From: Planctomycetota bacterium
Lineage (GTDB): Bacteria; Planctomycetota; UBA8108; SXIK01
Length of the DNA stretch: 64,000 bases
Direction of reading: 5' to 3'
NCBI GenBank assembly: GCA_965223845.1
Contig: CBDCXR010000004.1
Coordinates: 4,256,001-4,320,000, forward strand
The position numbers and the translations under genes were made by a program. Of this stretch, positions 1 through 13,569 are shown in pieces (within the stretch, counting starts at the first letter, position 1; each line of letters starts with the position of its first letter). The notes beneath the pieces were generated by a model, which was given only the letters and a program-made list of their open reading frames with translations, did not search any database and was not told the DNA's origin.

Positions 1-2
1 TG

Positions 3-278
3 GCTCACTCGCACGACTGGCCTTGCACTTCTTCCGAATCTCTGACGGAGTCCGTATCGCTTGCGGACACCCCGCCGTCCGAGACACGGATGGAATCCGA
101 CTGTCAGATTTGCCTGGCGCTCAGCACAGTCCGCCACTCCATTGTTGCTCCGAGTGGCTCGCGAACCCACACCCCCCTCGCCTCTATCTCCGCAAGGAGA
201 TTGATCACGTCACCAGACCTCTGGGTCTGCAGCTCGATCGATCTAAACCTTGCGGCGCCTCGGGCCCCTCCAGCCTGA
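3..278 (+). CDS. DUF2946/CruR/CutF-like leader peptide with RAPP arrest motif (5' end truncated by window edge)
   Basis: Frame is open from base 3: AHSHDWPC...SDCQIC...LAAPRAPPA*. It has HxH, CxxC and a C-terminal PRAPP, the DUF2946 hallmarks. The ORF track shows only 90..278. Confidence 0.8.
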   Translation, partial: AHSHDWPCTSSESLTESVSLADTPPSETRMESDCQICLALSTVRHSIVAPSGSRTHTPLASISARRLITSPDLWVCSSIDLNLAAPRAPPA

Positions 279-379
279 ATCTGATCGCTTGTAGTTGAGC
301 TCGACTCGCTGACCGAGCGCGGTTTGCCCGCGTGTCGACGGCGCGAGTTGAAAGCGCATGCGTTCAAGATTCACTGGAG
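268..379 (+). promoter_or_regulatory. Anti-Shine-Dalgarno RNA structure (putative translational attenuator)
   Basis: CTCCAG(cc)TGAATCT at 268-282 is complementary to AGATTCACTGGAG at 367-379, which contains the GGAG SD of the ATG at 388. Inner stem: TCGACTCGC 301-309 with GCGAGTTGA 343-351. Confidence 0.7.
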
Positions 380-387
380 ACTTCAAA

Positions 388-1002
388 ATGCCCTCGATTC
401 GCGAACAGCGGACGACGGTGCCATCGCGAGGCACGTCGAGCCGTTCCAGCGGACGGATCCGCGACGACCTAGTCTCGCGAGCCGTACGTGACCACCTAGA
501 CGTAATGCTCGCAGCCGCACGACGCGTACTTCCTAGCGATGATCTTGCCTGGGACGCAGTGCAAGAATCCCTCCAAGCGCTCTGGAAGGAAGGAGCCATC
601 AACACGCCTCTACGCGGTTGGCTGCTCCGAGCGGTTCGCCTCCGCGCTTTCCATTTGCTTCGGTCCGAGCGACGACGTCGCCAGCACGAAGCCGCGTGCG
701 CCTGCCTTTGCTGCCTGGTCGCCTACGATGATCCGGCTCGTCGAATGGAGAACCGCGAGCTTTTGAATCTGGCGGTGAAGGCTATCGAACGATTGCCCCC
801 AGCATATCGCAGTGTCGTCGAAATGCGTGACTGGCTCGACATGGACTACGCGTCCATTGCATTAGAGCTTGGCGTTCCCGTCGGTACGATCCGCTCGAGA
901 CTCAGCCGCGCCCGTGATCAGGTGCGCGCGGCACTCCGCCCGGCACTTCGACAAGGCCGGCGTTCGGGCGCAGGAGGGAGACCGGTCGCATGTCTGGCGT
1001 GA
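388..1002 (+). CDS. ECF (sigma-70 group 4) RNA polymerase sigma factor with Cys-rich linker
   Basis: Region 2 (AWDAVQE...LRGWLLR) and region 4 (LPPAYR...YASIALELGVPVGTIRSRLSRAR); linker HEAACACLCC; GGAG SD before ATG 388. Confidence 0.9.
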   Translation: MPSIREQRTTVPSRGTSSRSSGRIRDDLVSRAVRDHLDVMLAAARRVLPSDDLAWDAVQESLQALWKEGAINTPLRGWLLRAVRLRAFHLLRSERRRRQHEAACACLCCLVAYDDPARRMENRELLNLAVKAIERLPPAYRSVVEMRDWLDMDYASIALELGVPVGTIRSRLSRARDQVRAALRPALRQGRRSGAGGRPVACLA

Positions 1003-3047
1003 AGAAGCTCACCGGAGATGCGCTTGCTACCGGAGTCGCTCTCCTCGTCGCATCGATCTTCCCAGCTCCTTTGCAGGCGCAGGATCCGGGTCAAAGCGTC
1101 GCGAGGTCACTCATCCGCGGCACCTACGAACGAGTTTTTTTTCCCGAAGACGTCACCCGAATCGCGGTAGGTGACAAAGGCCTCCTGTCGTTCGAGCTGT
1201 TGAACACGCGTGAAGCTCTTGTTCTCGGTAAGGGTGTCGGACGAACGAACGTAGTCGTGTGGTACTCGAGCGGCGCGATCTCCGATCATCGATTCTCCAT
1301 CGAAGAAGATCTTTCCGTCTTGAAAGAGGCCTTGCGTGATCTCGACCCTCGGATCGCTGCGGAAATGGCCTCCAATCGTGCCGCAATCGTACTGCGCGGG
1401 GTTGTGCCCAATGCGATCGTCATGGAGCGTGCCGTTCGGGTCGCGGAGGACTACTTGGGCTCACGCTCGGGACGCACCCGCCGTCGAGGGCGCGGCGCGG
1501 GCACGACGGGCCCGGAGGACCTGGCTCAATCGCTGCGACTCATGGCCGATGCGATCGAGACGACCGATCGGCCTGCGGGAGAAACAGAGACCGTCGTAGC
1601 ATCGTCCACTCCCTCGCCGACGGCATCGGGAACTGTAATCAACCTGCTTCGAGTGGAACAGCCCCCAGAGACGACCGAAGAAAAAATACTCCGTGCGATT
1701 CAGCCTATCGCAGGTTCCGACGTCGCCGTCCGACGAGTCCTGAAAGGGGCGGTACCCGACGATGAGCGCGACGTGTTCGTGCTCGAGGGAAAAGTCGCCA
1801 ACCAGGTCGCGCTCGTACGCGTCTTGTCACTCGCAGCGAGAATCATCACCGGAAGATCTCTCCGCGGAGTGCGCGGCGAAAGCCTCATTCGGGTTCTCGC
1901 CGAGGAAGGCGGCGGCCTTTTCGAGGGAGGCGGACAGTCCGGCCAGGGCAATCGAAACCGCCAGAACTCTGGCGGTGCTGGACGAGGTGGTTCGGGATCC
2001 GGAAGGAGTGCTAGTTTTTTTCAGAGCGATATCGAGACGAATATCGCGCGCGCCAAGGCGCTCGATGTCGCCGACGGGCGCATCCTCTCTTTCCTAGAGG
2101 TTTCCGATCTCCCGCTCGTCCGGGTCAATGTTCAGTTCTACGAGGTAAATCGAGCAGAGATCCTCAACTATTCGTCGGACTGGGCCGCGTTCGTCTCGAG
2201 TTTCGAACAACCTGCGCTGTTAGGAGCTGGGTTGGCACCGGGATTTCAGTCGGCGCCGGCGAGTGTGGGGACCTTTGCCGCTACGGATATCCAGAATGTG
2301 CTCTCCTCGATCGGCGGCAACCTCGGCAATCAGTTCCAATTAGTCGACGACCATCTCGCGGTCGATACGGCGTTTTCTCTGCTTGAAGCGAAGGGTCTGG
2401 CACGACGGCTCTCCGCTCCGTCATTGACGGTACTCTCCGGTGAGCAAGCCGCGCTCTCCGTAGGAGGTGAAATTCCGATCCAGGAGATCTTTTCACCGGC
2501 TTTCAGCGGTGATGATTCCCCGGGCGTGTTCGGCTCTGTGCGCTTTCGGAGTTTCGGGATCTCACTCAATATGAGACCCCAGATCGACGAACGGGACATG
2601 ATCACGCTGGAGCTCGCTCCTACCGTGAGTCAACCGGATCAGCAGCTGACTTCGGTGCTTGTTGATACGACTGGAGCCGAGCAACCGACGACCGCCTTTC
2701 AGAGTCGATCGATGGTTACGAGCAGTCGGTTGAGAGACGGGCAGTCCCTGATGCTCGGCGGACTCGTATCGCGAGGCGACGCGCGTGACATTTCCCAGCC
2801 GCCTTTGATCGGTGATATCCCGCTTCTGGGCTGGTTGTTTCGCAACTTCGGCGAAACCGACGACGACCGCGAGCTGGTGATCCTCGTCAACCCGACGATC
2901 GTCAGAGAACCTATCCCCGAAATCGGCCTCTGGTCGTTTGCGAAACCGAGCGAACTTCTCGAATCAGCCGGACTTCGAAGACCCAGAGCCGACGGCGATC
3001 CGTCGGAATCGCCGCCGCACCTCGCTAAAGATCGGAGCGGGTCGTGA
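990..3047 (+). CDS. cpaC: Tad/Flp pilus secretin CpaC/RcpA
   Basis: Signal peptide; pilus-secretin N domain (RIAVGD...GRTNVVVW); secretin core (APSLTVLSGEQA..VGGEIP, FGISL, LRDGQSLMLGGL, P.IGDIPLLGWLFR, ELVILVNP). Confidence 0.9.
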   Translation: MSGVKKLTGDALATGVALLVASIFPAPLQAQDPGQSVARSLIRGTYERVFFPEDVTRIAVGDKGLLSFELLNTREALVLGKGVGRTNVVVWYSSGAISDHRFSIEEDLSVLKEALRDLDPRIAAEMASNRAAIVLRGVVPNAIVMERAVRVAEDYLGSRSGRTRRRGRGAGTTGPEDLAQSLRLMADAIETTDRPAGETETVVASSTPSPTASGTVINLLRVEQPPETTEEKILRAIQPIAGSDVAVRRVLKGAVPDDERDVFVLEGKVANQVALVRVLSLAARIITGRSLRGVRGESLIRVLAEEGGGLFEGGGQSGQGNRNRQNSGGAGRGGSGSGRSASFFQSDIETNIARAKALDVADGRILSFLEVSDLPLVRVNVQFYEVNRAEILNYSSDWAAFVSSFEQPALLGAGLAPGFQSAPASVGTFAATDIQNVLSSIGGNLGNQFQLVDDHLAVDTAFSLLEAKGLARRLSAPSLTVLSGEQAALSVGGEIPIQEIFSPAFSGDDSPGVFGSVRFRSFGISLNMRPQIDERDMITLELAPTVSQPDQQLTSVLVDTTGAEQPTTAFQSRSMVTSSRLRDGQSLMLGGLVSRGDARDISQPPLIGDIPLLGWLFRNFGETDDDRELVILVNPTIVREPIPEIGLWSFAKPSELLESAGLRRPRADGDPSESPPHLAKDRSGS

Positions 3048-4057
3048 TCCAGCTTCACCGTCGCGGCGCGCGAGAGTCGGGGGCCGCGCTGATCGAGTTT
3101 GCGATCGTCTCTCTCGCTCTGTACCTAATCCTCGCTGCGATCCTTACCTTCGGCTCGGCGATCTGGATCGGCCAGAATCTGCAGCAGGCCGTCGATGTCG
3201 GAGCGCAGGAGCTGGCACGGCTGCCGCTTGATCCGGACATCGATCTGGGCTGGGGCGATCTCCAGCAGGGCTGTGCTGCCCCGGAGGATGTGGAGGACTT
3301 CGCAGCGTGCGACGGTCGCGTCCTGGACGAGATCTACGACAAACAGTACCTCGTCATAACTCGCCAAGATATCTCGAATTCGAATATCGATCCCGACTCC
3401 CCCACCGCGCTTCTCGAGTACGCCGAGACGCTGCCGTTGATCAATCGATTGCTGATCCCGGTAATGATTTTCGATCGCCAGCATAGCGGCGGATCCTGGC
3501 GCTATCCCGGAGCCGTAGTGTTGAATACCGTGACGCCAGAGCCCGAAGAAACCGTGCTCGTTCCGATCGTCAGGAATGGCGAAATCCGTTGGGTCGCGCC
3601 AGTGGAAGAAGTTCGAGTCGATCACGACGGAGATTCGGCTACAGCTCCGGTCGGGCCCTTTTCGGTGCTCCCCCCGGAACCGACTCCTCCTGGCTTCGTC
3701 CCCGGAGTGGTGGCCCTTCGGATCAACTACCCATTCCAAAGCGCGGCGATGTCCGATTTCACGCCGAGCCCGGAAGGTGCCCTCGAGCCGAACCTCGATC
3801 GTGTCGTAACTGCGGACGACGCGTCGCTGACCGCGGGTGCAACAGGAGTCTACGCGCTTCAGGTCGCCGCGAACTCCTACGCGGACGGTGAGCCGAACAT
3901 CCACGGAGGTCGCTATGGTCTTGGCCGCCAGATCGCATTGCCATTCGATCGAGACTCGATTCGCACGTTTGGAGTTCGACCCTACCGGCGGATCCTGTCC
4001 GTGCAGGCGATCTACCGCCGCGAGGTCTTCGATTTCGGCCTCGGATCCACACCATGA
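3044..4057 (+). CDS. tadE: TadE-like pseudopilin with large C-terminal domain
   Basis: RESG|AALIEFAIV prepilin site, hydrophobic helix, then QQAVDVGAQELA; GTGA overlap with cpaC. Confidence 0.85.
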   Translation: MIQLHRRGARESGAALIEFAIVSLALYLILAAILTFGSAIWIGQNLQQAVDVGAQELARLPLDPDIDLGWGDLQQGCAAPEDVEDFAACDGRVLDEIYDKQYLVITRQDISNSNIDPDSPTALLEYAETLPLINRLLIPVMIFDRQHSGGSWRYPGAVVLNTVTPEPEETVLVPIVRNGEIRWVAPVEEVRVDHDGDSATAPVGPFSVLPPEPTPPGFVPGVVALRINYPFQSAAMSDFTPSPEGALEPNLDRVVTADDASLTAGATGVYALQVAANSYADGEPNIHGGRYGLGRQIALPFDRDSIRTFGVRPYRRILSVQAIYRREVFDFGLGSTP

Positions 4058-5316
4058 TTTCGCTACCGAAACCACTGCGCAGCCGAGAGGCCGGATCCGT
4101 ACTCGCGCTCTTCGCGATTCTTCTCTTCGGGCTCGTTGCGCTCCTGGCTTTGTCTATCGATACCGGATTCGTGCTACTGGCTCGCCGTCAGATGCAAGCG
4201 GCCGTCAACTCCGCCTCGGTCGAGGGTCTGCGCTGGCGCGATCGACTACCGCCTGTCGACGACTTGGTCGCTATCGGTGAGGATCCGAGTAACCCGGCAG
4301 AGCTCGAAACTCGAAAGGACGAGATTCGCCGCAAAATGGCGAGGCAATTCGTCCACGCCAGCTTCGATGTCGACTACGACGTAGGAAGCCCCGATCCGTC
4401 GACGGCCGTTCTCGGGGCCGGCCCGATGATCGGATTCGAAGGCGGGATCGATATCGGTGGCGGACTCAGAGCTTCCAGCTTGATTCGCCAACAGAATCCG
4501 AGGGCGTACAAACCAGCTCTCGCGCTGAATCTCGGTAATTCTGTCTCCGGAGACATGGTTTCCGGCGGCTATCTGGTGGACGGTTCGCGCGACGATTATG
4601 AGGACTTCCTCGACGTGAACGATCCGCCGGATGCCTTTCTCGTACGCCTCCGGCGGACAGACGAAGATCTTTCCTCGGCTCCGGACGCCAGCACGTCGGG
4701 TCCACCGATCCCCTCCCTATTCGGCAGGGCGGCCATCGCGCGCGCCGAGGAAGGCAATCCCCAGGCGCTACTTCAGCGTCGCGCGACTGGGGTTCGCGTT
4801 CGGGCGACGTCCATTGCCGATCTGAAACCCGCGGTCTCCGTCGGGTATTCATCGAACACGGACCGACCTGGAGTTCGCTACTTTGTCGACCGCTCGGTCT
4901 TCGACTGTTCCAATCCGACGATTCTCATCGACGAACTGGAGGTACCCCTCGATCCTCTGGGGCCACCCGTGCTCCCCTGTCCGTCGGGAGCGGGAGGAGC
5001 CGTCGTCCTTGGTGACTCGGTGGCGTCCCTCGTCCCTGCGGCACCTCCACTCCCTTCGGAGTCGTTCGTGGTGGCCATCTACGATTCGAGTGTTTGCCCG
5101 GCGGCGGCGGCAGATGTTGTCGTAGGCTTCGCGAACGTCAGAATCATCGACCAATCTGTCGTCCCCGCCGGCGATCTGGTCCTTGCGAACGGCTCCAGCA
5201 CCTTCGTTCGAAACTGCCAGCTCTCCGCGGACTGTTTCGACTCCTTGATCACGAACTGCTTTCAGCTCCAGGGGGCTGCGGTCAGAGCCCCAGCACGGGT
5301 GAGAGCAACTCGTTGA
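4054..5316 (+). CDS. tadG: TadG-like (Tad N-terminal domain) pseudopilin
   Basis: REAG|SVLALFAILL...LSIDTG...RRQMQAAVNSA is the typical Tad/TadG N-terminus; six Cys in the C-terminal part. Confidence 0.8.
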   Translation: MISLPKPLRSREAGSVLALFAILLFGLVALLALSIDTGFVLLARRQMQAAVNSASVEGLRWRDRLPPVDDLVAIGEDPSNPAELETRKDEIRRKMARQFVHASFDVDYDVGSPDPSTAVLGAGPMIGFEGGIDIGGGLRASSLIRQQNPRAYKPALALNLGNSVSGDMVSGGYLVDGSRDDYEDFLDVNDPPDAFLVRLRRTDEDLSSAPDASTSGPPIPSLFGRAAIARAEEGNPQALLQRRATGVRVRATSIADLKPAVSVGYSSNTDRPGVRYFVDRSVFDCSNPTILIDELEVPLDPLGPPVLPCPSGAGGAVVLGDSVASLVPAAPPLPSESFVVAIYDSSVCPAAAADVVVGFANVRIIDQSVVPAGDLVLANGSSTFVRNCQLSADCFDSLITNCFQLQGAAVRAPARVRATR

Positions 5317-5382
5317 CGGAGACGTTGGTCTTTTTGTCGAGTCCTTGGGAACTAGAGACGGTCCGGCGGCACTTCGACGCTG

Positions 5383-5904
5383 ATGACCAGCCCGTTTCTC
5401 GTTGACCGCTCGTTTAGTCGCCGACTCGACCGTGTCGGCATCGTCGTCTCGCTCGCCTGCGCGGCTCACTTCATTTCCGCGCCGGTGCTCCTGCTTGCCG
5501 CGCCCCTACTCGGCGGCCTGTGGGTGCACCCGGCTTCGCATGCGGTAATCGCTGCGTTCGCTCTGCCAGTGGCGGCGTTCTCACTACGGCGGGGATACGC
5601 CGTGCACGGCCGACGGTGGATCGCAGCAGCAGGCGCGCTCGGCGTCGCGTGCGTCGTACTCGGTGTGTTGTTGCCCGTGGCGACTGCGGCCGAACGACCG
5701 CCGGACGAAACGAATTTGAGCCGGTGCACGGATTGCTGCCCATCGATAGACATCGGGGCGGGGGCTGATTCCTGGTCACTTCGCATCCCTCCGGCGAGTT
5801 TCGTCAGCTTGATCGGTGGGATCGCCTTGGTCGCCGCGCACTTCGGGAATCTCCGTTGCTGCCGGAACTGCGGAAAAGCACGTGAGCGATCGTGTGAGCA
5901 GTGA
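5383..5904 (+). CDS. MerC-domain membrane protein with extra Cys clusters
   Basis: LDRVGIVVSLACAAH..P, H in helix 2, GYAVHGR, GG..LVAAHFGN match the MerC-family pattern; about 4 TM helices; extra CTDCC and CCRNC. Confidence 0.8.
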   Translation: MTSPFLVDRSFSRRLDRVGIVVSLACAAHFISAPVLLLAAPLLGGLWVHPASHAVIAAFALPVAAFSLRRGYAVHGRRWIAAAGALGVACVVLGVLLPVATAAERPPDETNLSRCTDCCPSIDIGAGADSWSLRIPPASFVSLIGGIALVAAHFGNLRCCRNCGKARERSCEQ

Positions 5905-6131
5905 CATCCGTGGGCGCGACAGCGCAGCTTTCGGCCGAGCGGGTCCGTTGGTGAGAGATTCGGTCCCCACCCGCGAGCAGGGTACAGAGGTTTCGACAGC
6001 ACGACGGAAGACTCAAAGAAGGAGAGTCTCGGAAATACCGGGAACTTCCTTCCGGCGAGCGGCACATCACACTCGAAAGGAGTGAAGTGCTCCTAGCCCC
6101 GTCACAACGATCCACAAGGAGGTTTCAAGAC

Positions 6132-6494
6132 ATGCGACAGAACATCCAACAAAGGAGGCGCGGAGCTGCAATGATCGAGTACGCCCTGCTCGTCGCGGGC
6201 GTCGTCCTCGTGGCCGCCGCTGCCACGGCAGTCTTCGGGCACAAGACGAACGACTTGATCTCTGGCGTAGCCGCTGTCCTTCCGGGTGCTCACGCAGACG
6301 ACAACGCCCCGATCGTCAGCGGCAAAATCATCGAGACGGCGCCCCAGGACCACGACGGGGACGCTGGAACGCCTGACGCCATCGCGCTCGATATCGACAC
6401 AATCGTTACCAACTCCGACGGCACGGTCGAGCGTCTCGGGAACCGCCTAGGTACGGCATCGAGCATCACGCAGCTGATCGTCGAGGCCGAATAG
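6132..6494 (+). CDS. flp: Flp/Fap pilin, long form (120 aa precursor)
   Basis: RRRG|AAMIEYALL Flp motif (G|xxxxEY); strong SD AAGGAGG upstream of ATG 6132. Confidence 0.88.
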   Translation: MRQNIQQRRRGAAMIEYALLVAGVVLVAAAATAVFGHKTNDLISGVAAVLPGAHADDNAPIVSGKIIETAPQDHDGDAGTPDAIALDIDTIVTNSDGTVERLGNRLGTASSITQLIVEAE

Positions 6495-6530
6495 CCCCGC
6501 GGCGACCAGTCTTAGACTCGAATTCGAAAC

Positions 6531-6570
6531 GCTCAAGGAGTTGCCCTCAGCCCAGGGCGACTCCTTGGGC
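6531..6570 (+). terminator. Strong hairpin after flp (terminator or mRNA stabiliser)
   Basis: GCTCAAGGAGTTGCCCT-cagccc-AGGGCGACTCCTTGGGC, about 17-bp stem with G-U pairs, followed by ATTGTTT. Confidence 0.6.
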
Positions 6571-6595
6571 ATTGTTTGCATCTCGGAGAAAGCAC

Positions 6596-7747
6596 ATGGC
6601 AAGACCGCGCAGAAGCTCGACTCCCTGGGTCGTCGTGACTCTTCTCTTGATCGGCGTGTACGGGCTCGCGGTCTACCTTCAGGTCGAGGGCTATCTGCGA
6701 TTGCCGTTCGAGCTGCCGCTCGTTTCCCAATTTCAGAGGGCTACTTCCGAGGGAGCGGTCGACGCACAGTCGAACGCGCGTGGAAAAATCGCGGTGCCGA
6801 TGTCTGCAGCAGATATTCCTGCCTACACAAAGCTTCGCCGAGAGCACATGTGGGATTCCAAGCGGGGCAGGTTTACCACCATTCTGTTGGACGAAGACGA
6901 CGTCCCGGCGGCCGTACTCCGAGATTTTTCCGAGATCGTGGGGCGTGTTCTCGACCATGACAAACCAGCAGGCTACGTGTTCACCGAGGACGATTTCTAT
7001 CCGAAGGGAACGCGAGAAGGGCTGGTCGCAGGGATCCCGCCGAACAAGATGATGTTGTTGGTCGAGGCGAACAAGGTGAAGGGGCTCTTCGGACTCAGGC
7101 CGGGAGATCGGTTCGACATAGTCCGCACGATCCCCGTCGATTCGAAGGGCGGCGCGGTGTCCCGAGAGACTGCCGGGCCCTACGGGGATCAGATCTCGCT
7201 CGCCATGAAGTTGTCCAACTGGGACAAGCAGGCTGAGGTCCGCGTTGTGGTTCGAGACGGCGTAGTGGTGACTCCGGTGAAGACGAGAGCCAAGCCGACC
7301 TCGAGTCAGAGCCTCACCAGAGGAGCCGTTGCCCGTTCCGTGCCGATCCAAGAGATTTATATCGCGGTTGCTCCCGAGGAAGCGGCGCCGTTGAGCGAGG
7401 CAATGGCGGTTGGTGCCGACGTGAGAGCGGTGATTCGATCGGGTCATGCTACCGTGCCTGCGAACATAGGCGTCTCGGATCTTCAACCACGCAATCCTCT
7501 CAACGACCTGATGTCGGCTTTGATCCCCGCCGACACGGCGTCTTCGAACGGGACGTTTAGGCCAGCGGTCGCAGGTTCGTTCCGACTCGTCGAACGCGTA
7601 GAAGACGGCCGACGTCAGCTCGTGACCGTTCCCGGTTTCGTAGATCGTCAGAACCAGGAACGGTGGGACGGCCAGATTCGCGTCGTCCCTGCTGCGGGTT
7701 CGCTCGACACCACGGAAAGCGGAACGCAAGGTGAGCGGGACGAGTAG
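6596..7747 (+). CDS. cpaB: Flp pilus assembly protein CpaB/RcpC (SAF domain)
   Basis: N-terminal TM; SAF-like AADIPAYTKL; GIPPNKM...GLRPGDRFDIV; IAVAPEEAAPL; position in tad operon. Confidence 0.85.
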   Translation: MARPRRSSTPWVVVTLLLIGVYGLAVYLQVEGYLRLPFELPLVSQFQRATSEGAVDAQSNARGKIAVPMSAADIPAYTKLRREHMWDSKRGRFTTILLDEDDVPAAVLRDFSEIVGRVLDHDKPAGYVFTEDDFYPKGTREGLVAGIPPNKMMLLVEANKVKGLFGLRPGDRFDIVRTIPVDSKGGAVSRETAGPYGDQISLAMKLSNWDKQAEVRVVVRDGVVVTPVKTRAKPTSSQSLTRGAVARSVPIQEIYIAVAPEEAAPLSEAMAVGADVRAVIRSGHATVPANIGVSDLQPRNPLNDLMSALIPADTASSNGTFRPAVAGSFRLVERVEDGRRQLVTVPGFVDRQNQERWDGQIRVVPAAGSLDTTESGTQGERDE

Positions 7748-7756
7748 GAATCGCCG

Positions 7757-9052
7757 ATGCAGATTCTGTTGGTTAGCTCTGATCCATCGCTCCGCGAGGA
7801 ATTCGAGGCCGCACTCGAAAACCTAAAGGAATTCAGTCCCTCCGTCCTCACGGCCGACAGCCCACGACAGGGGGTCGAGGTCGCACGGATTCGACGCCCA
7901 AACCTCGTCCTCATCGAAATGGACGCGAACGGAGGACGGCTCGACCGGTTCGCGTCGGAAATCTCGGCCCACGCACCTCGCACTCTCATCGGCGCGGTGT
8001 ATCGCGCAGACGTGCTCGGGTCAGGAAGCTCGGAAACCGCAATCATCTCGGGCGTTCGAGCCGGCGTGAGCGACTTTCTTCGCCGCCCTCTTTCCAGTGT
8101 GGAAATCGAGCAGTTGCTCATTCGCGCGCGGCACCGAAACGCGCGCCAGGCCCCGGTCGCCCGAGGCCTCATCGTGTCGGTTTCCAGCACGAAAGGAGGG
8201 GTTGGAAAGTCGACGCTCGCAGTCAACAGTGCATGCCTTCTCGCGCGCCGCGCGCCCGGGCGAGTGCTGCTTGTCGATGCATCCCTTCAGCTCGGCGTGT
8301 GCGCACGAATGCTCGACCTCGAAACGAAGACGACCATCACCGACGCGACGCAGGAACTCGATCGGCTGGATCCCACGCTACTGCGTGAGTTGGCGCTCCA
8401 CCACGACAGCGGGCTGCATCTCCTTGCGGCGCCCAAGGATCCAGTCGGCTCGACGGAGGTGAACGACGAGGCTATCGCCCGTGTCTTGGCGACTGCGCGT
8501 CAAGCCTACGAGTATGTCGTGGTCGACACCTTCCCACTTCTGGAATCGGTGGTGCTTGCCGTGCTCGATCTCAGCGACCTCGCCTACCTCGTCTTTCAAG
8601 GCACGGTTCCCTGCGTCCTTGGCCATGTCGGATATCTTCGGGCGCTTGAGAACGTCGGAATTGATGTGAATCGACAACGTCTCGTGTTGAGTCGAAACCA
8701 CGCGCGGTTTTCTGGTGATCTGTCGCTCAGCGATATCGTCCGCAAACTCGGTCGCGACATCGATCACGTCATTCCGTACCAACGGCGCATACTGAGCTCC
8801 ATGAACACTGGTGAACCCTACGTGCTGCGACACCGAGGATTATTCGGGTTCGGACGCGCAGTGCGGAATCTTGTTCACGAAATTGTTCAGGAGCGGGAGG
8901 CTCAAAGCATTAACGGAGATCAGAAGAACGCGCACTCATCCGAATCCTCCCCCGCGGATCACGCCGAAGGAGATTCTGTCCGAGTGCGTGAACCAGATTT
9001 CAGAGCTCCACAGCAGCAGGGTTCGACTCGCTCATCGGAGGTTAATCAATGA
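7757..9052 (+). CDS. cpaE: CpaE/TadZ (receiver domain plus ParA/MinD-like ATPase)
   Basis: N-terminal receiver-like domain; deviant Walker A KGGVGKST; YEYVVVDT. Confidence 0.9.
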   Translation: MQILLVSSDPSLREEFEAALENLKEFSPSVLTADSPRQGVEVARIRRPNLVLIEMDANGGRLDRFASEISAHAPRTLIGAVYRADVLGSGSSETAIISGVRAGVSDFLRRPLSSVEIEQLLIRARHRNARQAPVARGLIVSVSSTKGGVGKSTLAVNSACLLARRAPGRVLLVDASLQLGVCARMLDLETKTTITDATQELDRLDPTLLRELALHHDSGLHLLAAPKDPVGSTEVNDEAIARVLATARQAYEYVVVDTFPLLESVVLAVLDLSDLAYLVFQGTVPCVLGHVGYLRALENVGIDVNRQRLVLSRNHARFSGDLSLSDIVRKLGRDIDHVIPYQRRILSSMNTGEPYVLRHRGLFGFGRAVRNLVHEIVQEREAQSINGDQKNAHSSESSPADHAEGDSVRVREPDFRAPQQQGSTRSSEVNQ

Positions 9053-10479
9053 GCGGCGCGAACGACACGAGTGACACGGAGGCGTCGATCCGGGACCGGA
9101 TACGGTCTCAAGGACGAGAAAAGCCGGTTCGGCTTCGAAAGAAAAGATCCGATGAGTCGCTCTCGGATCGCTCCCGAACGAACGTGCGGTCGACAGTGCC
9201 CGCCTCGGCGACGGACTACGTGGCGATCAAAGCCGGACTCCAGCGACGTCTTCTCGAGGAGATCTCCGAGCGCAACGTTCTGAACGAATCCGATGATGCG
9301 CTTGCGGGGGCGGTCGACGAGTTCGTCTCTCGGGTGCTCGAGACAGAGAAAATCCCGCTCAACCGAAGCGAACGGGACCGTCTTGCCGACGAACTGCGCG
9401 AGGAAACGACCGGTGCGGGACCGCTGGCTCCGCTCATGGCAGATCCGGCGGTGACGGACATCCTCGTAAACGGTCCGCGTAAGGTGTACGTCGAGAGATT
9501 CGGGCTCCTCGAGCGAGCCGGTGTGCAGTTTAGAGATGCCGAGCACATCGTTCGGGTGATCGAGCGAATCGCGGCTCGGATCGGGCGGCGTATCGATGCG
9601 AGCGCACCGCTCTTGGATGCGCGCTTGCCCGATGGTAGTCGTGTCAACGCGACGATCCCCCCGATTTCCATCGATAGTCCGACGATCTCGATCCGCCGTT
9701 TCGGTCAGCGTCGCCTCCGCTCGCAGGACCTTCTTCAACTGGGGATGTACTCGGTCGACATGATCGAGTTTCTCGCGCATGCCGTGAGAGCTCGAATGAG
9801 TGTCCTGGTCTCGGGCGGGACCGGCGCCGGAAAGTCCACACTGCTCGGAGCTCTCTGCGAGTCTATTCCGGATCTCGAACGAATCGTAACGATCGAGGAT
9901 ACGGCCGAGTTGCTGCTTGACCAAGAACACGTGGTGCGCATGGAGAGTAGGCCCTCCAACACCGAAGGGCGAGGCCGCATCACGACGCGAGATCTTGTCA
10001 TCAATTCGCTCCGGATGCGTCCGGATCGCATCATCGTCGGAGAGGTCAGGGGCGGCGAAGCTCTAGATATGCTTCAGGCTCTCAACACGGGCCATGACGG
10101 TGGTCTCTCTACGATCCACGCGAACTCCCCGCGGGATGCCTTGTCTCGTCTCGAGACCATGGTGTTGATGTCGGGGCTCGATCTGCCGTCTAGGGCCATC
10201 CGCGAGCAAATTGTCGCGGCCCTGCGATTTGTGGTGCACGTTCGTCGTTTCGAAGACGGAGTGCGACGAGTCGAGAACGTATCTGAGATCGTTGGCTTGG
10301 AGGGCGCAACGCCCCTCCTCAACGAGGTGTTTCGTTTTGAGCGGCGCGGCTTCGAACGCAATCGCGTGATGGGCGCGTACCGACCCACGGGTATCGTTCC
10401 GAGGCTCGTCGACGAGTTGGGCCGCCGCGGCGTCAAGATTCCCGTGGACATGTTCCAACCTCCGCAGGAGAGAACATGA
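9049..10479 (+). CDS. cpaF: CpaF/TadA pilus assembly ATPase
   Basis: GGTGAGKST, TIEDTAEL, LRMRPDRIIVGEVRG, NTGHDG.STIHAN. Confidence 0.95.
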   Translation: MSGANDTSDTEASIRDRIRSQGREKPVRLRKKRSDESLSDRSRTNVRSTVPASATDYVAIKAGLQRRLLEEISERNVLNESDDALAGAVDEFVSRVLETEKIPLNRSERDRLADELREETTGAGPLAPLMADPAVTDILVNGPRKVYVERFGLLERAGVQFRDAEHIVRVIERIAARIGRRIDASAPLLDARLPDGSRVNATIPPISIDSPTISIRRFGQRRLRSQDLLQLGMYSVDMIEFLAHAVRARMSVLVSGGTGAGKSTLLGALCESIPDLERIVTIEDTAELLLDQEHVVRMESRPSNTEGRGRITTRDLVINSLRMRPDRIIVGEVRGGEALDMLQALNTGHDGGLSTIHANSPRDALSRLETMVLMSGLDLPSRAIREQIVAALRFVVHVRRFEDGVRRVENVSEIVGLEGATPLLNEVFRFERRGFERNRVMGAYRPTGIVPRLVDELGRRGVKIPVDMFQPPQERT

Positions 10480-11339
10480 CGCACCCCGCCCTCTGGTTGA
10501 CCGGACTTGCCGGAATCAGCTTGATCGTGGTGGCCGTTCGCCGCCGGAGCACCTACAGAACTGCCCTAACTCAGCTGACGCGGGACGAGGTCGAGGAAGA
10601 CCGGTTTCAAGACGAGCAAGAGACCGCCCCACGACCTGCCCTATCGCCTCCCAAGCACTGGGTGGCAGTCGCCCTGTCGCTTTCGAGCGGAGCGGTGTTG
10701 TATCTCGTCGCTGATTTGCCGATCGTCTTCGCGATTACACTCTCCTTGATCGTCGGCATAAGTGCGTTCGTTGTCGTCGAGTCAGTTCGTGAAAGAAAAC
10801 TACTACGTCTCGAAAGGCAACTGGCGGACACGGTCGATCTGCTCGTCGCATCTCTTCGAGCCGGAGCAGGGATCATGGACGCACTAGAGGATGCCGTGCG
10901 GGAATCGAGAAGACCGCTGCGGGGAGTCCTGGAGGCGACTCTCACACGACTACGCTATGGAGATTCACCGCACCGGGTATTCAGCGAGTTCGCGGAGTCG
11001 ATCTCGCTCGAATCAGTACGACTCTTCTCTCTCTCCTTGTCTGTTCACTGGGAAGTCGGCGGCAGCCTTGCGTCGAGCCTCTCTAGCGTCGGACGCTTCA
11101 TCAGGGACCGCGTCGAGGCTCAACGCAGCGTCTCCACGCAGGGCGCGCAGGTTCGGGCGTCAGTGATCGGCGTGACTCTCGTCGCGTACTTTATTGCCAT
11201 CATCGTTTGGCGGTCACGGCCCGACGCCATGGCTGCGTTTCTTACGACAACCGTGGGGACTTGGCTGACGTCGGTAGCTCTCATGCTTCAAGCATTGGGG
11301 CTGTTCTGGATGTTCAAGCTAAGCCGCATTCGATACTGA
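10476..11339 (+). CDS. tadB: TadB inner-membrane platform protein
   Basis: T2SSF-like: QLADTVDLLVASLRAG, EVGGSLA; follows cpaF. Confidence 0.88.
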   Translation: MTHPALWLTGLAGISLIVVAVRRRSTYRTALTQLTRDEVEEDRFQDEQETAPRPALSPPKHWVAVALSLSSGAVLYLVADLPIVFAITLSLIVGISAFVVVESVRERKLLRLERQLADTVDLLVASLRAGAGIMDALEDAVRESRRPLRGVLEATLTRLRYGDSPHRVFSEFAESISLESVRLFSLSLSVHWEVGGSLASSLSSVGRFIRDRVEAQRSVSTQGAQVRASVIGVTLVAYFIAIIVWRSRPDAMAAFLTTTVGTWLTSVALMLQALGLFWMFKLSRIRY

Positions 11340-11353
11340 CAGGAAACGCTCTT

Positions 11354-12271
11354 GTGAACGACGCCGTCGTATGGCTGACAGCCTCCGCGGGCGTAGCGCT
11401 GCTCTTGATCGGGATATGGCGCTCGCGAGGGCGACAACCGATCCGAGCAAGGCTTTTCGAGGACGATTCCGCCCCCTCGCTGCCTCCCCCTGTCGACGTA
11501 GCCTCTTCAGCGCCATTGGATTCGTGGATCAGCCGGTGGCTTTACGTTGCCGGGTTCAGACACAGACGATCGACCACCGTTTTTCTCCTCTGGGCCGCGT
11601 TTGCGGCGTTCGTCGGTGGGATGGCCGGCTACGCGCTACAGAGTTCGGGGTTCCTCGATCTGGGTGCGCAGTGGCTCGCCGAAGTTCCTGGAGGACTTGG
11701 CGAGCTCTTCCTTCCGGCGATCGTTCTGGCGCCTTGGATTGTCTTCGCGATCGTGTCGTCGATCCCATGGCTCCACGTGAGAGCGTCACGCCGGCGAATT
11801 GTGAACGAAATCGAGCAAGATCTGCCCATAACGGCGGAGCTCCTCGCAACCCTCGGCGAGGCGGGGCTCGGGTTCGACTCGGCCGTCGACCGAATCCTCG
11901 CCTCAAAACAGAAGCACCGCGCATTGGCATCCGAGCTCGGTGCGTTTCGGCGAGATCTTTTGGCAGGACTTCCTCGCATCCAAGCTCTTCGCCGGCTTGC
12001 GGTTCGCGTTGATCTTCCGGCTGTATCGACAGTCGTTTCGGCTCTCGTGCAGGCGGAGCAGGTAGGAGCAGGGCTCGCGAGCGTGCTCCGGAACGAAGCT
12101 GACGACTTGAGAAACCGTCGACGCGAGCGGGCTCTTCGCGTTGCGCAGGCGTTGCCGGTCAAGCTCACCGTGCCGCTAGTCCTCTGTTTTTTCCCGGCGA
12201 TCGTCATTGCGGTTCTGGGCCCTACGTTCTTCGAGATCTTTCAGATGCTCGAAACTTATCTGGCTCGCTGA
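11354..12271 (+). CDS. tadC: TadC inner-membrane platform protein
   Basis: EAGLGFDSA, ALVQAEQVG, PVKLTVPLVLCFFPA; GTG start after AGGA. Confidence 0.88.
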   Translation: MNDAVVWLTASAGVALLLIGIWRSRGRQPIRARLFEDDSAPSLPPPVDVASSAPLDSWISRWLYVAGFRHRRSTTVFLLWAAFAAFVGGMAGYALQSSGFLDLGAQWLAEVPGGLGELFLPAIVLAPWIVFAIVSSIPWLHVRASRRRIVNEIEQDLPITAELLATLGEAGLGFDSAVDRILASKQKHRALASELGAFRRDLLAGLPRIQALRRLAVRVDLPAVSTVVSALVQAEQVGAGLASVLRNEADDLRNRRRERALRVAQALPVKLTVPLVLCFFPAIVIAVLGPTFFEIFQMLETYLAR

Positions 12272-12282
12272 GCGGGGAACGA

Positions 12283-12975
12283 ATGAACGAATCAGGCTCC
12301 TACTTCAAGTCTCTGCTCTTGCGAGCATGCACGGCGGCCGTTCTCGGGGCGTATAGCGTCGCCTCCGGTTGCGCCACGATGACGCTCGAAGGGCCAGACG
12401 ATCCGGCTAGCGAGCTGAGATCGCTGCTCGACGAGCTCGAGTCCCGCACAGACGAGGGCAACCATGGAGAGGACGCAAGGCGAAGGCTCGCCAGGCTCTC
12501 GGCCAAGTATCCGCGCGACGTCGACATCCATCTAGCGAATGCAGTGTACGCAGCGCAGGACGCGGATCCCGCCGGTGCGAGGTTCCATCTCGACGCGCTC
12601 TTTCGCATCGTTTCCGTTCATCCAGAGGCTGCACTCCTTCGAGCTGAGCTTGCGATGAAGGAAGGAAACCTCCCGCTCGCGTTGCGAGTACTCGACGAAC
12701 AGATTCGTCTCGTCCCCGATCATCCTGGCTTACGCGAGACCCGTGGATCGGTGTACTACTTTCGGGGCGAATACCGAGCCGCTTGGGAGGAACTGCAGCG
12801 GGCTTTGAGCCTCGGCGCGCCTGGTTGGCGAGTGGCTTATCACAAAGGCTTAGTAGCCGAGGCGGAGGGGAGGTCCGAGGACGCTCGGACGCTCTACGAA
12901 AACAGCCTCCGTCTGAATCCTGACTTCCAACCCGCTGCGTCGCGCGCTCGCGCGCTAAGCGAGGCTGGGGAGTAG
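12283..12975 (+). CDS. TPR lipoprotein, TadD/pilotin-like
   Basis: Lipobox-like VASG-C; several TPR repeats; last gene of the tad operon. Confidence 0.75.
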   Translation: MNESGSYFKSLLLRACTAAVLGAYSVASGCATMTLEGPDDPASELRSLLDELESRTDEGNHGEDARRRLARLSAKYPRDVDIHLANAVYAAQDADPAGARFHLDALFRIVSVHPEAALLRAELAMKEGNLPLALRVLDEQIRLVPDHPGLRETRGSVYYFRGEYRAAWEELQRALSLGAPGWRVAYHKGLVAEAEGRSEDARTLYENSLRLNPDFQPAASRARALSEAGE

Positions 12976-13159: not shown

Positions 13160-13345
13160 CCTCACGCTGCGCGCGATCGAACGCCTAGTCGATACCGCCC
13201 GACTGGTGCTGGAGAGCGCGTCGTGCGCTTGCCTGCACGATCGCCGAACCTGAACGCCTCCGCCGAGCGACTCGTGCTCTCGATCGAAAGTGAGCGACTT
13301 TGCCGAATGACCTTCTTCACGGACGGTTCGCTTCGGCGAGCCTCC
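13160..13345 (+). pseudogene. Degraded transposase fragment (integrase core domain)
   Basis: VVRLPARSPNLNASAERLVLSIESERLCRMTFF...SLRRA resembles the rve_3-type motif P.RSPNLNAYAERFV.SIK.ECL.RMIFF; boundaries approximate. Confidence 0.7.
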
Positions 13346-13569
13346 AATCGTTCGAGGTGCAGCGCCGAGGTACGCGACGCGGCTCCGGAGGCACATCGAT
13401 CCATCCTGCAAGCGGCTGTGTTTTTGCCAAAAACGGACCTTCGATCTGCGACAATGGAGCGTTTGTCGGTCAACGGAGCCCGCGGGCTTGCTCCCGCAGG
13501 GCGAGAAGGATTGCTGCATCCCCAAAATGCCAGCCGGTGCGCGGAGAACGAGAAAGAGAACGCGAAGCT

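Follow-up and report, generated by a model that had tools for sequence, protein, structure and literature searches.

A putative ribosome-arrest leader and an ECF sigma factor gene at the head of a Tad pilus operon in Planctomycetota

The first part of a 64,000-nucleotide stretch of a Planctomycetota genome (assembly GCA_965223845.1, contig CBDCXR010000004.1, positions 4,256,001 to 4,320,000 of the forward strand; the whole stretch is called the window below) holds 13 co-oriented genes on the plus strand, which form one tad (type IVc pilus) operon at positions 1-12975. The genes follow each other in the order leader open reading frame (ORF), extracytoplasmic function (ECF) sigma factor, cpaC, tadE, tadG, merC-like, flp, cpaB, tadZ, cpaF, tadB, tadC and tadD. 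The host genome measures about 7.93 Mb and is labelled G000; G005 and G016 are related genomes, and positions with an L label refer to individual loci. Judged from the anatomy of the first two genes, the small leader peptide, taken here to be exported, probably stalls its ribosome and thereby switches on the operon's own sigma factor. The elements on which this reading is built are as follows.

1..278, plus strand: leader ORF, with its 3' two thirds in the window; the full ORF has 141 residues (L001:1353-1778)
99..113, plus strand: codons D-C-Q-I-C (C84, C87), the putative sensing CxxC, invariant in 11 leaders
261..278, plus strand: putative arrest site R-A-P-P-A-stop (CGG GCC CCT CCA GCC TGA), with R137, P139 and P140 invariant
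268..379, plus strand: long RNA hairpin from the Pro-Pro codons to the sigma Shine-Dalgarno sequence, predicted from fold and covariation
388..1002, plus strand: ECF sigma factor, 204 residues (Sigma70_r2, 24.3 bits; Sigma70_r4_2, 61.2 bits)
685..714, plus strand: HEAACACLCC, an H-x3-C-x-C-x2-C motif in the sigma2-sigma4 linker, directly after region 2
5348..5372, plus strand: ECF-type promoter motif GGAACTAGAGACGGTCCGGCGGCAC, whose end stands 10 nt short of the merC-like ATG
6041..6065, plus strand: ECF-type promoter motif GGAACTTCCTTCCGGCGAGCGGCAC, upstream of flp

Leader peptide and RNA hairpin

The leader frame (3..278) is open at the 5' edge of the window, and its genomic start lies 148 nt upstream (L001:1353). 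From the N- to the C-terminus, the peptide consists of a basic start, a hydrophobic stretch of about 19 residues, the repeat AHSH...AHSH, the motif ESDCQIC (C84 and C87) and the end AAPRAPPA before the stop codon. An earlier note on this DNA had described a leader with HSH, DCQIC and a terminal RAPP; all three are present, with the correction that one Ala follows RAPP, so that the motif is not strictly terminal. In an alignment of 11 leaders of this RxPP type, the sole invariant residues are M1, C84, C87, R137, P139 and P140, and relatives with RGPP in place of RAPP are also seen. The RxPP codons vary synonymously among the relatives, which use all four CGN Arg codons and several Pro codons; this indicates that the constraint acts on the amino acids. 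A profile search with the leaders retrieved 164 proteins at E <= 1e-3, all of them without a name, and among the matches listed, RAPP lies within the last 16 residues in 113 of 120 leader homologues. Outside its motif islands the leader evolves fast, and its overall constraint is mild: the ratio of nonsynonymous to synonymous differences (pN/pS) between G000 and the metagenomic relative L131 is 0.58. The L131 leader (1800-2249), the closest metagenomic one, carries HGLGHE three times in tandem after the anchor and ends in DLNLAAPRAPPA, as does the window leader.

CutF-like ORFs have been selected as ORFs of fewer than 150 residues with PP in the last 15 residues and a same-strand downstream gene at no more than 1000 nt (PMC9973294). 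The window leader has 141 residues, its PP stands at 139-140, and the sigma start follows on the same strand 110 nt past its stop codon. For the counts that concern Pfam matches and spacing, 33 leaders upstream of related sigma genes were used, L089 being omitted. The N-terminal stretch of the related leaders has hydropathy scores of 1.3-2.9. In the predicted exported part of the leaders, CxxC is invariant in the RxPP type, and His is enriched 54 residues before Pro-Pro in 16 of the 33.

The distance between the cysteines and the prolines is nearly constant. Counted between the second CxxC cysteine and the leading proline of Pro-Pro, it is 52 residues in G000, 51 in G005 and 52 in G016; it is 46-48 in the remaining RxPP-type leaders and 46 in 109 of 113 RAPP homologues, among the matches listed. 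Taking leaders of both types together, a Cys is found 46-55 residues before Pro-Pro in all 33 (at 51-52 in 23 of them), at an overall Cys content of 2.9%. Since the sequence between CxxC and RxPP is poorly conserved and the distance is kept, the length itself appears to be the conserved feature. In CutF, 45 residues are reported between the Cu motif and the Pro motif, and its authors propose that with this spacing the Cu motif stands at SecY's periplasmic mouth as the ribosome arrives at the prolines (PMC9973294). The near-constant distance offers a direct, measurable prediction of how arrest peptides sense what happens where the chain exits the translocon.

A second class of leaders precedes sigma genes of the same family (L047-L093; for example L049:182-649 and L076:9248-9706). 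These end in L-A-P-(K/H/G)-x-S-P-P followed by 1-7 residues, with APKQSPP in 10 of 23, and carry E-H-x-x-C exactly 50-53 residues before Pro-Pro. LAPKxSPP is a possible new arrest motif.

At the RNA level, the minimum-energy fold of G000 pairs CUCCAG (268-273, Pro-Pro codons) with CUGGAG (374-379), with z = -2.33. The 5' arm of the predicted hairpin consists of the Pro-Pro codons, the leader stop codon and the next bases, and the 3' arm holds the sigma Shine-Dalgarno sequence GGAG (376-379), 8 nt before ATG 388. The same pairing is predicted in G005 (z = -2.85), and in G016 a purine-rich stretch before the sigma AUG has its predicted partner in the codons immediately 5' of PRGPP (z = -3.40). 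To avoid end effects, each locus was folded again within a larger context (180 nt upstream, 120 nt downstream), and the pair probabilities were summed (L079 and L089 were omitted). In 10 of 32 loci, the stall window ranked first among 37-58 candidate partners of the sigma initiation region, against a chance level that we estimate at about one locus in 32; the 10 include G000, G005 and G016, with 9.9, 12.1 and 13.0 expected base pairs, respectively. A minimum-energy test on trimmed regions, in which at least five initiation-region bases paired with the stall window in 18 of 32 loci, was set aside in favour of this context test, because cutting the sequence at both ends favours such pairing. The consensus fold of G000, L131, L120 and G005 contains 35 pairs, nine of which are changed on both sides; 93.4% of its cells are paired, compared with 28.7-38.4% when the partners are slid, and none of 500 shuffles reached the observed values, for a structure derived from these same four sequences.

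Sigma factor, candidate regulon and tad genes

Two in-frame ATG codons, at 358 and 388, could start the sigma factor; the window protein is listed in the database with 204 residues, which corresponds to ATG 388. The sigma ORF (end 1002) overlaps the secretin ORF (start 990) by 13 nt, and this overlap, together with the Sigma70_r2 and Sigma70_r4_2 matches, agrees with the earlier description of an ECF sigma factor with HEAACACLCC overlapping the secretin gene. Residues H100, C104, C106 and C109 are invariant in 8 aligned sigma sequences, and the motif H-x3-C-x-C-x2-C (HExACACLxC) occurs, among 82 sigma homologues, in the 10 closest only; in more distant homologues RRRxHE is kept and the Cys patterns differ. 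Conservation of the cysteines, on which the earlier proposal depended, is therefore seen both in the leader (CxxC in 11 sequences) and, within this close group, in the sigma factor. The sigma tail after region 4 (about 24 residues) holds a single Cys, C202, kept in 6 of the 8 sequences.

CorE-like ECF sigma factors are defined by a CxC between sigma2 and sigma4 and by a Cys-rich C-terminal domain of 21-50 residues (PMC6851896, PMC8999054). The window sigma has the CxC (C104-A-C106) and lacks the Cys-rich domain; by its sequence it is not a member of the CorE family, and of the proposed CorE-type metal sensing only the CxC is retained. An AlphaFold2 model of the sigma factor built from an 8-row alignment (mean predicted local distance difference test score 64.8, linker below 56) was too poor to judge whether H100, C104, C106, C109 and C202 cluster. 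Among the assigned genes of this operon, from leader to tadD, no anti-sigma domain was found. The sigma factor of this family is present as a single copy in the G000 genome, located in this operon.

The motif GGAAC-N13-15-[CG]G[GA]CA[TC] precedes flp in 17 of 21 related loci, compared with 4 of 1798 control windows from the same loci; when variants of the -35 element are allowed, the counts are 20 of 21 and 11 of 1798 (L054, L062 and L080, in which flp had no match, were omitted). On both strands of the 64-kb window the motif occurs twice only, before flp and before the merC-like gene. Its strict form has 6 matches in the 7.93-Mb genome, two of which are these sites, and a looser pattern has 46 matches genome-wide, with about 30 expected by chance from our composition estimate. 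Of 7 non-tad loci with an RxPP-type leader, 6 carry the motif 65-457 nt ahead of that leader, where an ECF promoter under autoregulation would be expected. Before the G000 leader, a sigma70-like site, TTGACC-N17-GAGAAT, is located at L001:1318-1346 (window -182 to -154) and ends 7 nt before the leader ATG; a scan found this one site against 0.1 expected in shuffles, and from its position the leader mRNA may be leaderless. The merC-like transcript would likewise be leaderless or nearly so, as its ATG stands 10 nt past the -10-like element (5372-5383). A crude count of 5-mer/4-mer pairs upstream of the leaders in 33 loci gave no bipartite promoter (maximum 8, compared with 5-8 in shuffles). Partial forms of the motif are found in the relatives, namely GGAACT without CGGCAC before the G005 merC-like gene and GGAAC-N14-CGGACT before a His-rich lipoprotein gene of G016.

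The genes downstream of the sigma factor, with the evidence for each assignment, are the following.

990..3047, plus strand: CpaC/RcpA-type secretin (Pfam Secretin, 6.9e-37; T2SS-T3SS_pil_N, 1.7e-11)
3044..4057, plus strand: TadE-like pseudopilin of 337 residues with VDHDGD (Pfam TadE, 3.8e-07)
4054..5316, plus strand: TadG-like pseudopilin of 420 residues (Pfam Tad, PF13400, 3e-05)
5383..5904, plus strand: MerC-family membrane protein of 173 residues (Pfam MerC, PF03203, E = 5.9e-19)
6132..6494, plus strand: Flp pilin of 120 residues from ATG 6132 (processing motif G/AAMIEY and homology to the pilins of 18 other loci)
6531..6570, plus strand: 17-bp GC-rich hairpin between flp and cpaB, terminator- or attenuator-like
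6572..7747, plus strand: CpaB/RcpC (TIGR03177, 1.5e-12)
7757..9052, plus strand: TadZ/CpaE-type ParA/MinD ATPase with an N-terminal receiver-like domain (domain matches)
9049..10479, plus strand: CpaF/TadA secretion ATPase (Pfam T2SSE, 1.1e-61; TIGR03819, 6.4e-103)
10476..11339, plus strand: TadB (Pfam T2SSF, 4.7e-15)
11207..12271, plus strand: TadC, longest ORF (Pfam T2SSF, 4.6e-17)
12283..12975, plus strand: TadD-like TPR protein with a Cys within a hydrophobic N-terminal stretch (TPR families)

By Pfam and NCBIfam, the Tad/Flp set is complete for Flp, CpaC, CpaB, TadZ/CpaE, CpaF/TadA, TadB and TadC. The Pfam Flp_Fap match of the pilin is weak (E = 0.05), and AAGGAGG stands 8 nt upstream of its ATG 6132. 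Judged against G005, the true start of tadC is probably near 11340. No prepilin peptidase gene (TadV/CpaA) lies within 1-12975, and the rest of the genome was not searched for one. After the operon, the same strand carries an ORF of 925 residues (13300-16077) with an FGE-sulfatase (formylglycine-generating enzyme-like) domain (2.3e-32). The hairpin at 6531-6570 resembles a partial terminator or attenuator and could set the ratio of pilin to machinery.

The planctomycete Flp pilins (the window flp and 18 related flp genes) are long, about 95-120 residues, and share, beyond the hydrophobic helix, FGHKTND and PGAHADDN(G/A)PI.SGKIIET; all 19 intact pilins aligned contain PGAHADDN or a closely similar sequence. 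In G005, flp (L011:6800-7100) is split over two frames, with an N-terminal half that stops after about 45 residues and a degenerate C-terminal half, and its promoter has GGAAT in place of GGAAC; decay of the pilin gene or an error in the assembly may explain this. The earlier note had counted a DHDGD motif in the pilin and in TadE among its metal signatures. DHDGD is indeed found in both, in the pilin (APQDHDGDAGTP) and in the TadE-like protein (RVDHDGDSAT), but as a metal signature it is weak and was rejected: in the pilin it lies within an insertion of about 7 residues seen in this small clade alone, and its His is not conserved (DLDGDG in G016, DHVGD in G005). In TadE, VDHD is kept, but the comparison consists of three sequences of 61-66% identity.

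The MerC-domain gene that had been placed between tadG and flp is borne out by a PF03203 match of 69.1 bits against a gathering score of 27.6. Its alignment shows a conserved CxxH in the first hydrophobic segment, CxDCC and a C-terminal CC. The gene is the only one of its family in the 7.9-Mb G000 genome, and its neighbours are tadG and flp; no mer operon genes (merR, merT/P, merA) were found within 1-13 kb. Among 61 relatives, 14 have a MerC-family gene, which lies inside the tad locus only in G000 (between tadG and flp) and G005 (after tadD), and 12 of the 13 other MerC-bearing relatives have it elsewhere. In L081, the sigma gene is followed by a merC-like gene with the promoter motif between them. 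Where G005 has its merC-like gene, after tadD, G016 encodes a His/Cys-rich lipoprotein (L012:1833-2201, minus strand). G005 also encodes a divergent secreted protein starting with DDHGHGHEDD (L044, about 7300-7616, minus strand), behind a perfect GGAACT-N13-CGGCAC.

Of 401 genomes sampled evenly across the phylum, 29 encode a sigma factor of this family (E <= 1e-25), and a secretin follows the sigma gene directly in 11 of these 29 loci. A second set of 51 related loci was taken from a species-representative collection. There, tad genes directly follow the sigma gene in 20 loci, across families, and lie nearby in 3 more, and a leader accompanies the sigma gene in 33, of which 9 are of the RxPP type and 24 end in L-A-P-(K/H/G)-x-S-P-P; the other 18 have no recognisable leader. 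Both pairings, leader with sigma and sigma with tad genes, are thus widespread in the phylum. The order leader, ECF sigma, cpaC and tad genes is kept in G005 and G016, so that the proposed synteny holds for this part of the locus and fails for merC, which is linked to tad only in G000 and G005. In four non-tad sigma loci (L052, L057, L077 and L079), pilin-like genes with DUF1559 and N-terminal methylation signals come next, and in further ones the next proteins are without Pfam matches. The sigma family may generally control proteins of the surface-filament type.

Proposed mechanism and rival explanations

Based on the layout described above, we consider it reasonably likely that the tad operon is run by its own ECF sigma factor, whose synthesis is gated post-transcriptionally by the leader peptide. 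The leader would be exported through Sec during its translation. When the ribosome reaches RAP-P, CxxC would stand 52 residues back, about where the chain exits the translocon. Either a thiophilic metal (for instance Cu or Zn) or oxidising conditions, met by the Cys/His residues there, would alter the pull on the nascent chain, and this pull would set the duration of the arrest. The arrested ribosome would hold CCU in its P site and CCA in its A site and would sit over the hairpin's 5' arm; consequently, the Shine-Dalgarno sequence would be freed and the sigma factor translated. The sigma factor would then transcribe flp through tadD and the merC-like gene from the GGAAC-N14-CGGCAC promoters. 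The H-x3-C-x-C-x2-C of its linker could act as a second, cytoplasmic metal or redox check, and the MerC-like membrane protein may import the ion and thereby act back on the sigma factor. A concrete route from leader to pilus genes, made up of a candidate RNA switch of the SecM/CutF type and of ECF-type promoters before flp and the merC-like gene, is supported by these predicted elements.

Several observations weigh against this reading. The DUF2946 profile (PF11162) matches the leader from end to end (profile positions 2-117 of 117), but with 16.1 bits (E = 0.02) against a Pfam gathering score of 23.7; by this match the leader is a divergent relative of DUF2946 and CutF/CruR, and the earlier assignment stands only in that looser sense. 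At E < 1, DUF2946 is matched by 8 of 10 RxPP-type leaders, with L065 alone over the cut-off (25.7 bits), and by 7 of 23 leaders of the second type, and none of the 120 leader homologues among the matches listed has a precomputed Pfam domain. Export through the N-terminal hydrophobic anchor is suggested by hydropathy alone. In 22 of the 32 leader-bearing loci, the stall window is not the best partner of the guessed sigma start; either the guessed start codons are wrong there, or the mechanism differs, as CruR uses Rho. The closing helix CUCCAG/CUGGAG is invariant among the four relatives bar one G-U, so that covariation is seen in the inner stems only of a structure tested on the sequences from which it came. 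Half of the 20 sigma-tad loci have no recognisable leader and 10 have one, and in non-tad members most of the genes after the sigma factor have no known function and no link to metals. None of the tad-linked loci has the flp-type ECF motif within 500 nt upstream of its leader, and recognition of the GGAAC-CGGCAC motif by the sigma factor is suggested by position and co-occurrence.

The main rival keeps the same RNA switch and the same circuit from sigma factor to flp, but lets the leader report thiol oxidation or Sec export capacity instead of metal. Disulfide formation at CxxC, or translocation itself, would give the force that releases the arrest, and the pili would follow the redox or secretion state of the envelope. 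Thiol-redox or Sec-export sensing fits the leader anatomy as well as metal sensing does, in that CxxC comprises the only invariant internal residues of the RxPP-type leaders. Moreover, RAPP/RGPP upstream ORFs are also reported before DsbA, thioredoxin and sec genes (PMC12992588), the model proposed for CutF itself invokes failed disulfide formation (bioRxiv 10.1101/2025.02.05.636593), and the genes after the non-tad family members are, as said, not related to metal. Nevertheless, the second leader class has a lone conserved Cys after His (E-H-x-x-C), which makes an internal disulfide impossible there, and further features point away from redox or export as the signal: His-rich stretches adjoin the anchor, as in the threefold HGLGHE of L131, a MerC-family gene stands under the same promoter motif, and His-rich secreted proteins are encoded at the G016 and G005 loci. 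On balance, we regard this rival as unlikely, if the strongest of the alternatives.

It is quite improbable, in our view, that the leader acts as a finished protein, be it an anti-sigma factor anchored in the membrane or a periplasmic metal chaperone serving the pilus machinery, with RAPP and the hairpin being incidental. A small single-pass anchored protein beside a sigma factor does recall the class II anti-sigma factor CnrY (PMC6851896), and the mild overall constraint (pN/pS 0.58, G000 against L131) would suit such a protein. However, only about 18 residues precede the hydrophobic segment, compared with 45 in CnrY; bar the start Met, CxxC and RxPP alone are invariant, at a fixed spacing with no conservation between them; the Pro-Pro codons are predicted to pair with the sigma Shine-Dalgarno region in all three clade loci; and CutF is reported to be degraded after export and to act only in cis (PMC9973294). 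The absence of any functional link, with the ECF sigma and MerC-like genes merely sitting in a tad operon and the motifs arising by chance in GC-rich DNA, we hold to be very improbable. It would account for the 46 genome-wide matches of the looser promoter pattern against about 30 by chance, for the finding that 12 of the 13 other relatives with a merC-like gene have it at another place, and for the crude motif search upstream of the leaders, which did not rise above shuffled controls. It would leave unexplained that tad genes follow the sigma gene in 20 of 51 loci across families, that the flp promoter motif occurs in 17 of 21 loci against 4 of 1798 controls, that the leader spacing holds in 33 of 33, and that the only MerC-family gene and the only sigma factor of this family in the genome are both in the operon.

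Relation to known systems and meaning for the phylum

SecM, VemP and MifM provide the general precedent for the control proposed here: a ribosome that stalls on an exported leader unfolds a hairpin which otherwise hides the start region of the following gene, and release of the arrest depends on pulling by translocation. They differ from the present case in that they control Sec or YidC components and have no metal-type motif, whereas the candidate target here is a sigma factor for pili. The closest likeness is to CutF of Rhodobacter capsulatus and CruR of Bordetella pertussis, with which the leader shares a small ORF, a Cys/His motif, a C-terminal Pro-rich/RAPP sequence and a proposed action in cis on the next gene; its N-terminal hydrophobic stretch may correspond to their export signal. 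For CutF, stalling is reported to open a stem-loop over the cutO ribosome-binding site (PMC9973294; bioRxiv 10.1101/2025.02.05.636593), and the predicted stem-loop over the downstream ribosome-binding site and the Cys-to-Pro distance of about 45-52 residues extend the resemblance. In CruR, arrest is placed with two Pro codons in the P and A sites, and RAPP and RGPP are reported to arrest ribosomes and to resist EF-P (PMC12992588). The targets are different: CutF and CruR precede a multicopper oxidase, a TonB receptor, an RND pump or a chaperone, unlike the ECF sigma factor found here. In addition, the window leader has CxxC where CutF has CxxxC, its Pfam score is below the cut-off, and its phylum, Planctomycetota, has no mention in the main text of the mBio 2023 paper (PMC9973294).

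ApdA, ApdP and the Streptomyces lividans peptides likewise combine R-A/G-P-P near the C-terminus of a small protein targeted to the membrane with a co-oriented gene downstream. Two of the latter, SLIV_33595 and SLIV_33605, were described in December 2025 as arrest peptides before ECF sigma genes, with arrest in vitro and in vivo (PMC12992588). These have four predicted transmembrane segments and no metal motif in the description given there, whereas the window leader has a single anchor, is DUF2946-like and carries CxxC; unlike in the S. lividans case, a candidate RNA switch and a candidate regulon (the flp operon and the merC-like gene) can be named here. With CorE and CorE2 of Myxococcus xanthus (ECF44, now ECF238), the sigma factor shares the lack of an adjacent anti-sigma gene, the CxC between sigma2 and sigma4, and the absence of the sigma factor's own promoter motif, here a candidate one, upstream of the sigma gene; it differs in lacking the Cys-rich C-terminal domain and in the extension of the motif to H-x3-C-x-C-x2-C. 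The pilus genes themselves (Flp with G/xxxxEY, CpaC, CpaB, TadZ/CpaE, CpaF/TadA, TadB, TadC, TadD and TadE/TadG) resemble those of Caulobacter cpa and Aggregatibacter tad, from which the operon is set apart by the leader and ECF sigma factor at its head, by the MerC-family gene within it, by the lack of a prepilin peptidase gene in the operon, and by a long pilin (120 residues) with the conserved PGAHADDN. The MerC-like protein belongs to its family by score, but has no mer operon context.

DUF2946 upstream ORF sensors, RAPP/RGPP peptides and the S. lividans cases are known, so that the principle is not new. A literature search, which did not cover the table of CutF neighbours in PMC9973294, found nothing that links DUF2946-like leaders or ECF sigma factors to tad loci. 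No description was found of a DUF2946-like sensor before an ECF sigma gene, of its RNA switch, of the spread in Planctomycetota or of the LAPKxSPP motif. The novelty claimed by the earlier note consequently survives for the link to tad, for which no precedent was found, and is reduced by the S. lividans peptides, which already stand before ECF sigma genes (PMC12992588).

The significance of the locus lies in how a signal might reach a sigma factor. ECF sigma factors are normally restrained by anti-sigma factors, and to our knowledge the control mechanism of many groups that have none is not known. The anatomy seen here points to a sigma factor whose synthesis is controlled by a nascent-chain sensor of the CutF/CruR type. 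A wider version, which we put forward only tentatively and consider doubtful, is an anti-sigma-free mode of signalling to ECF sigma factors throughout the phylum, comprising an exported sensor peptide, a fixed spacing of 46-52 residues from metal-binding Cys to arrest site, the LAPKxSPP class, and pili together with a MerC-like importer that feeds the sigma site, so that attachment would be switched by trace metals. Metal capture or mineral attachment by the pili is speculation. If the proposed control is true, an extracytoplasmic signal would reach transcription without any membrane signalling protein, and pilus production would be tied to a signal sensed outside the cytoplasm. The Tad pili of Planctomycetota, a phylum in which regulation is largely unexplored, would thereby gain a named regulator, a promoter motif and a testable input, which may be of use to those who study ECF sigma factors, arrest peptides and the surface biology of planctomycetes.

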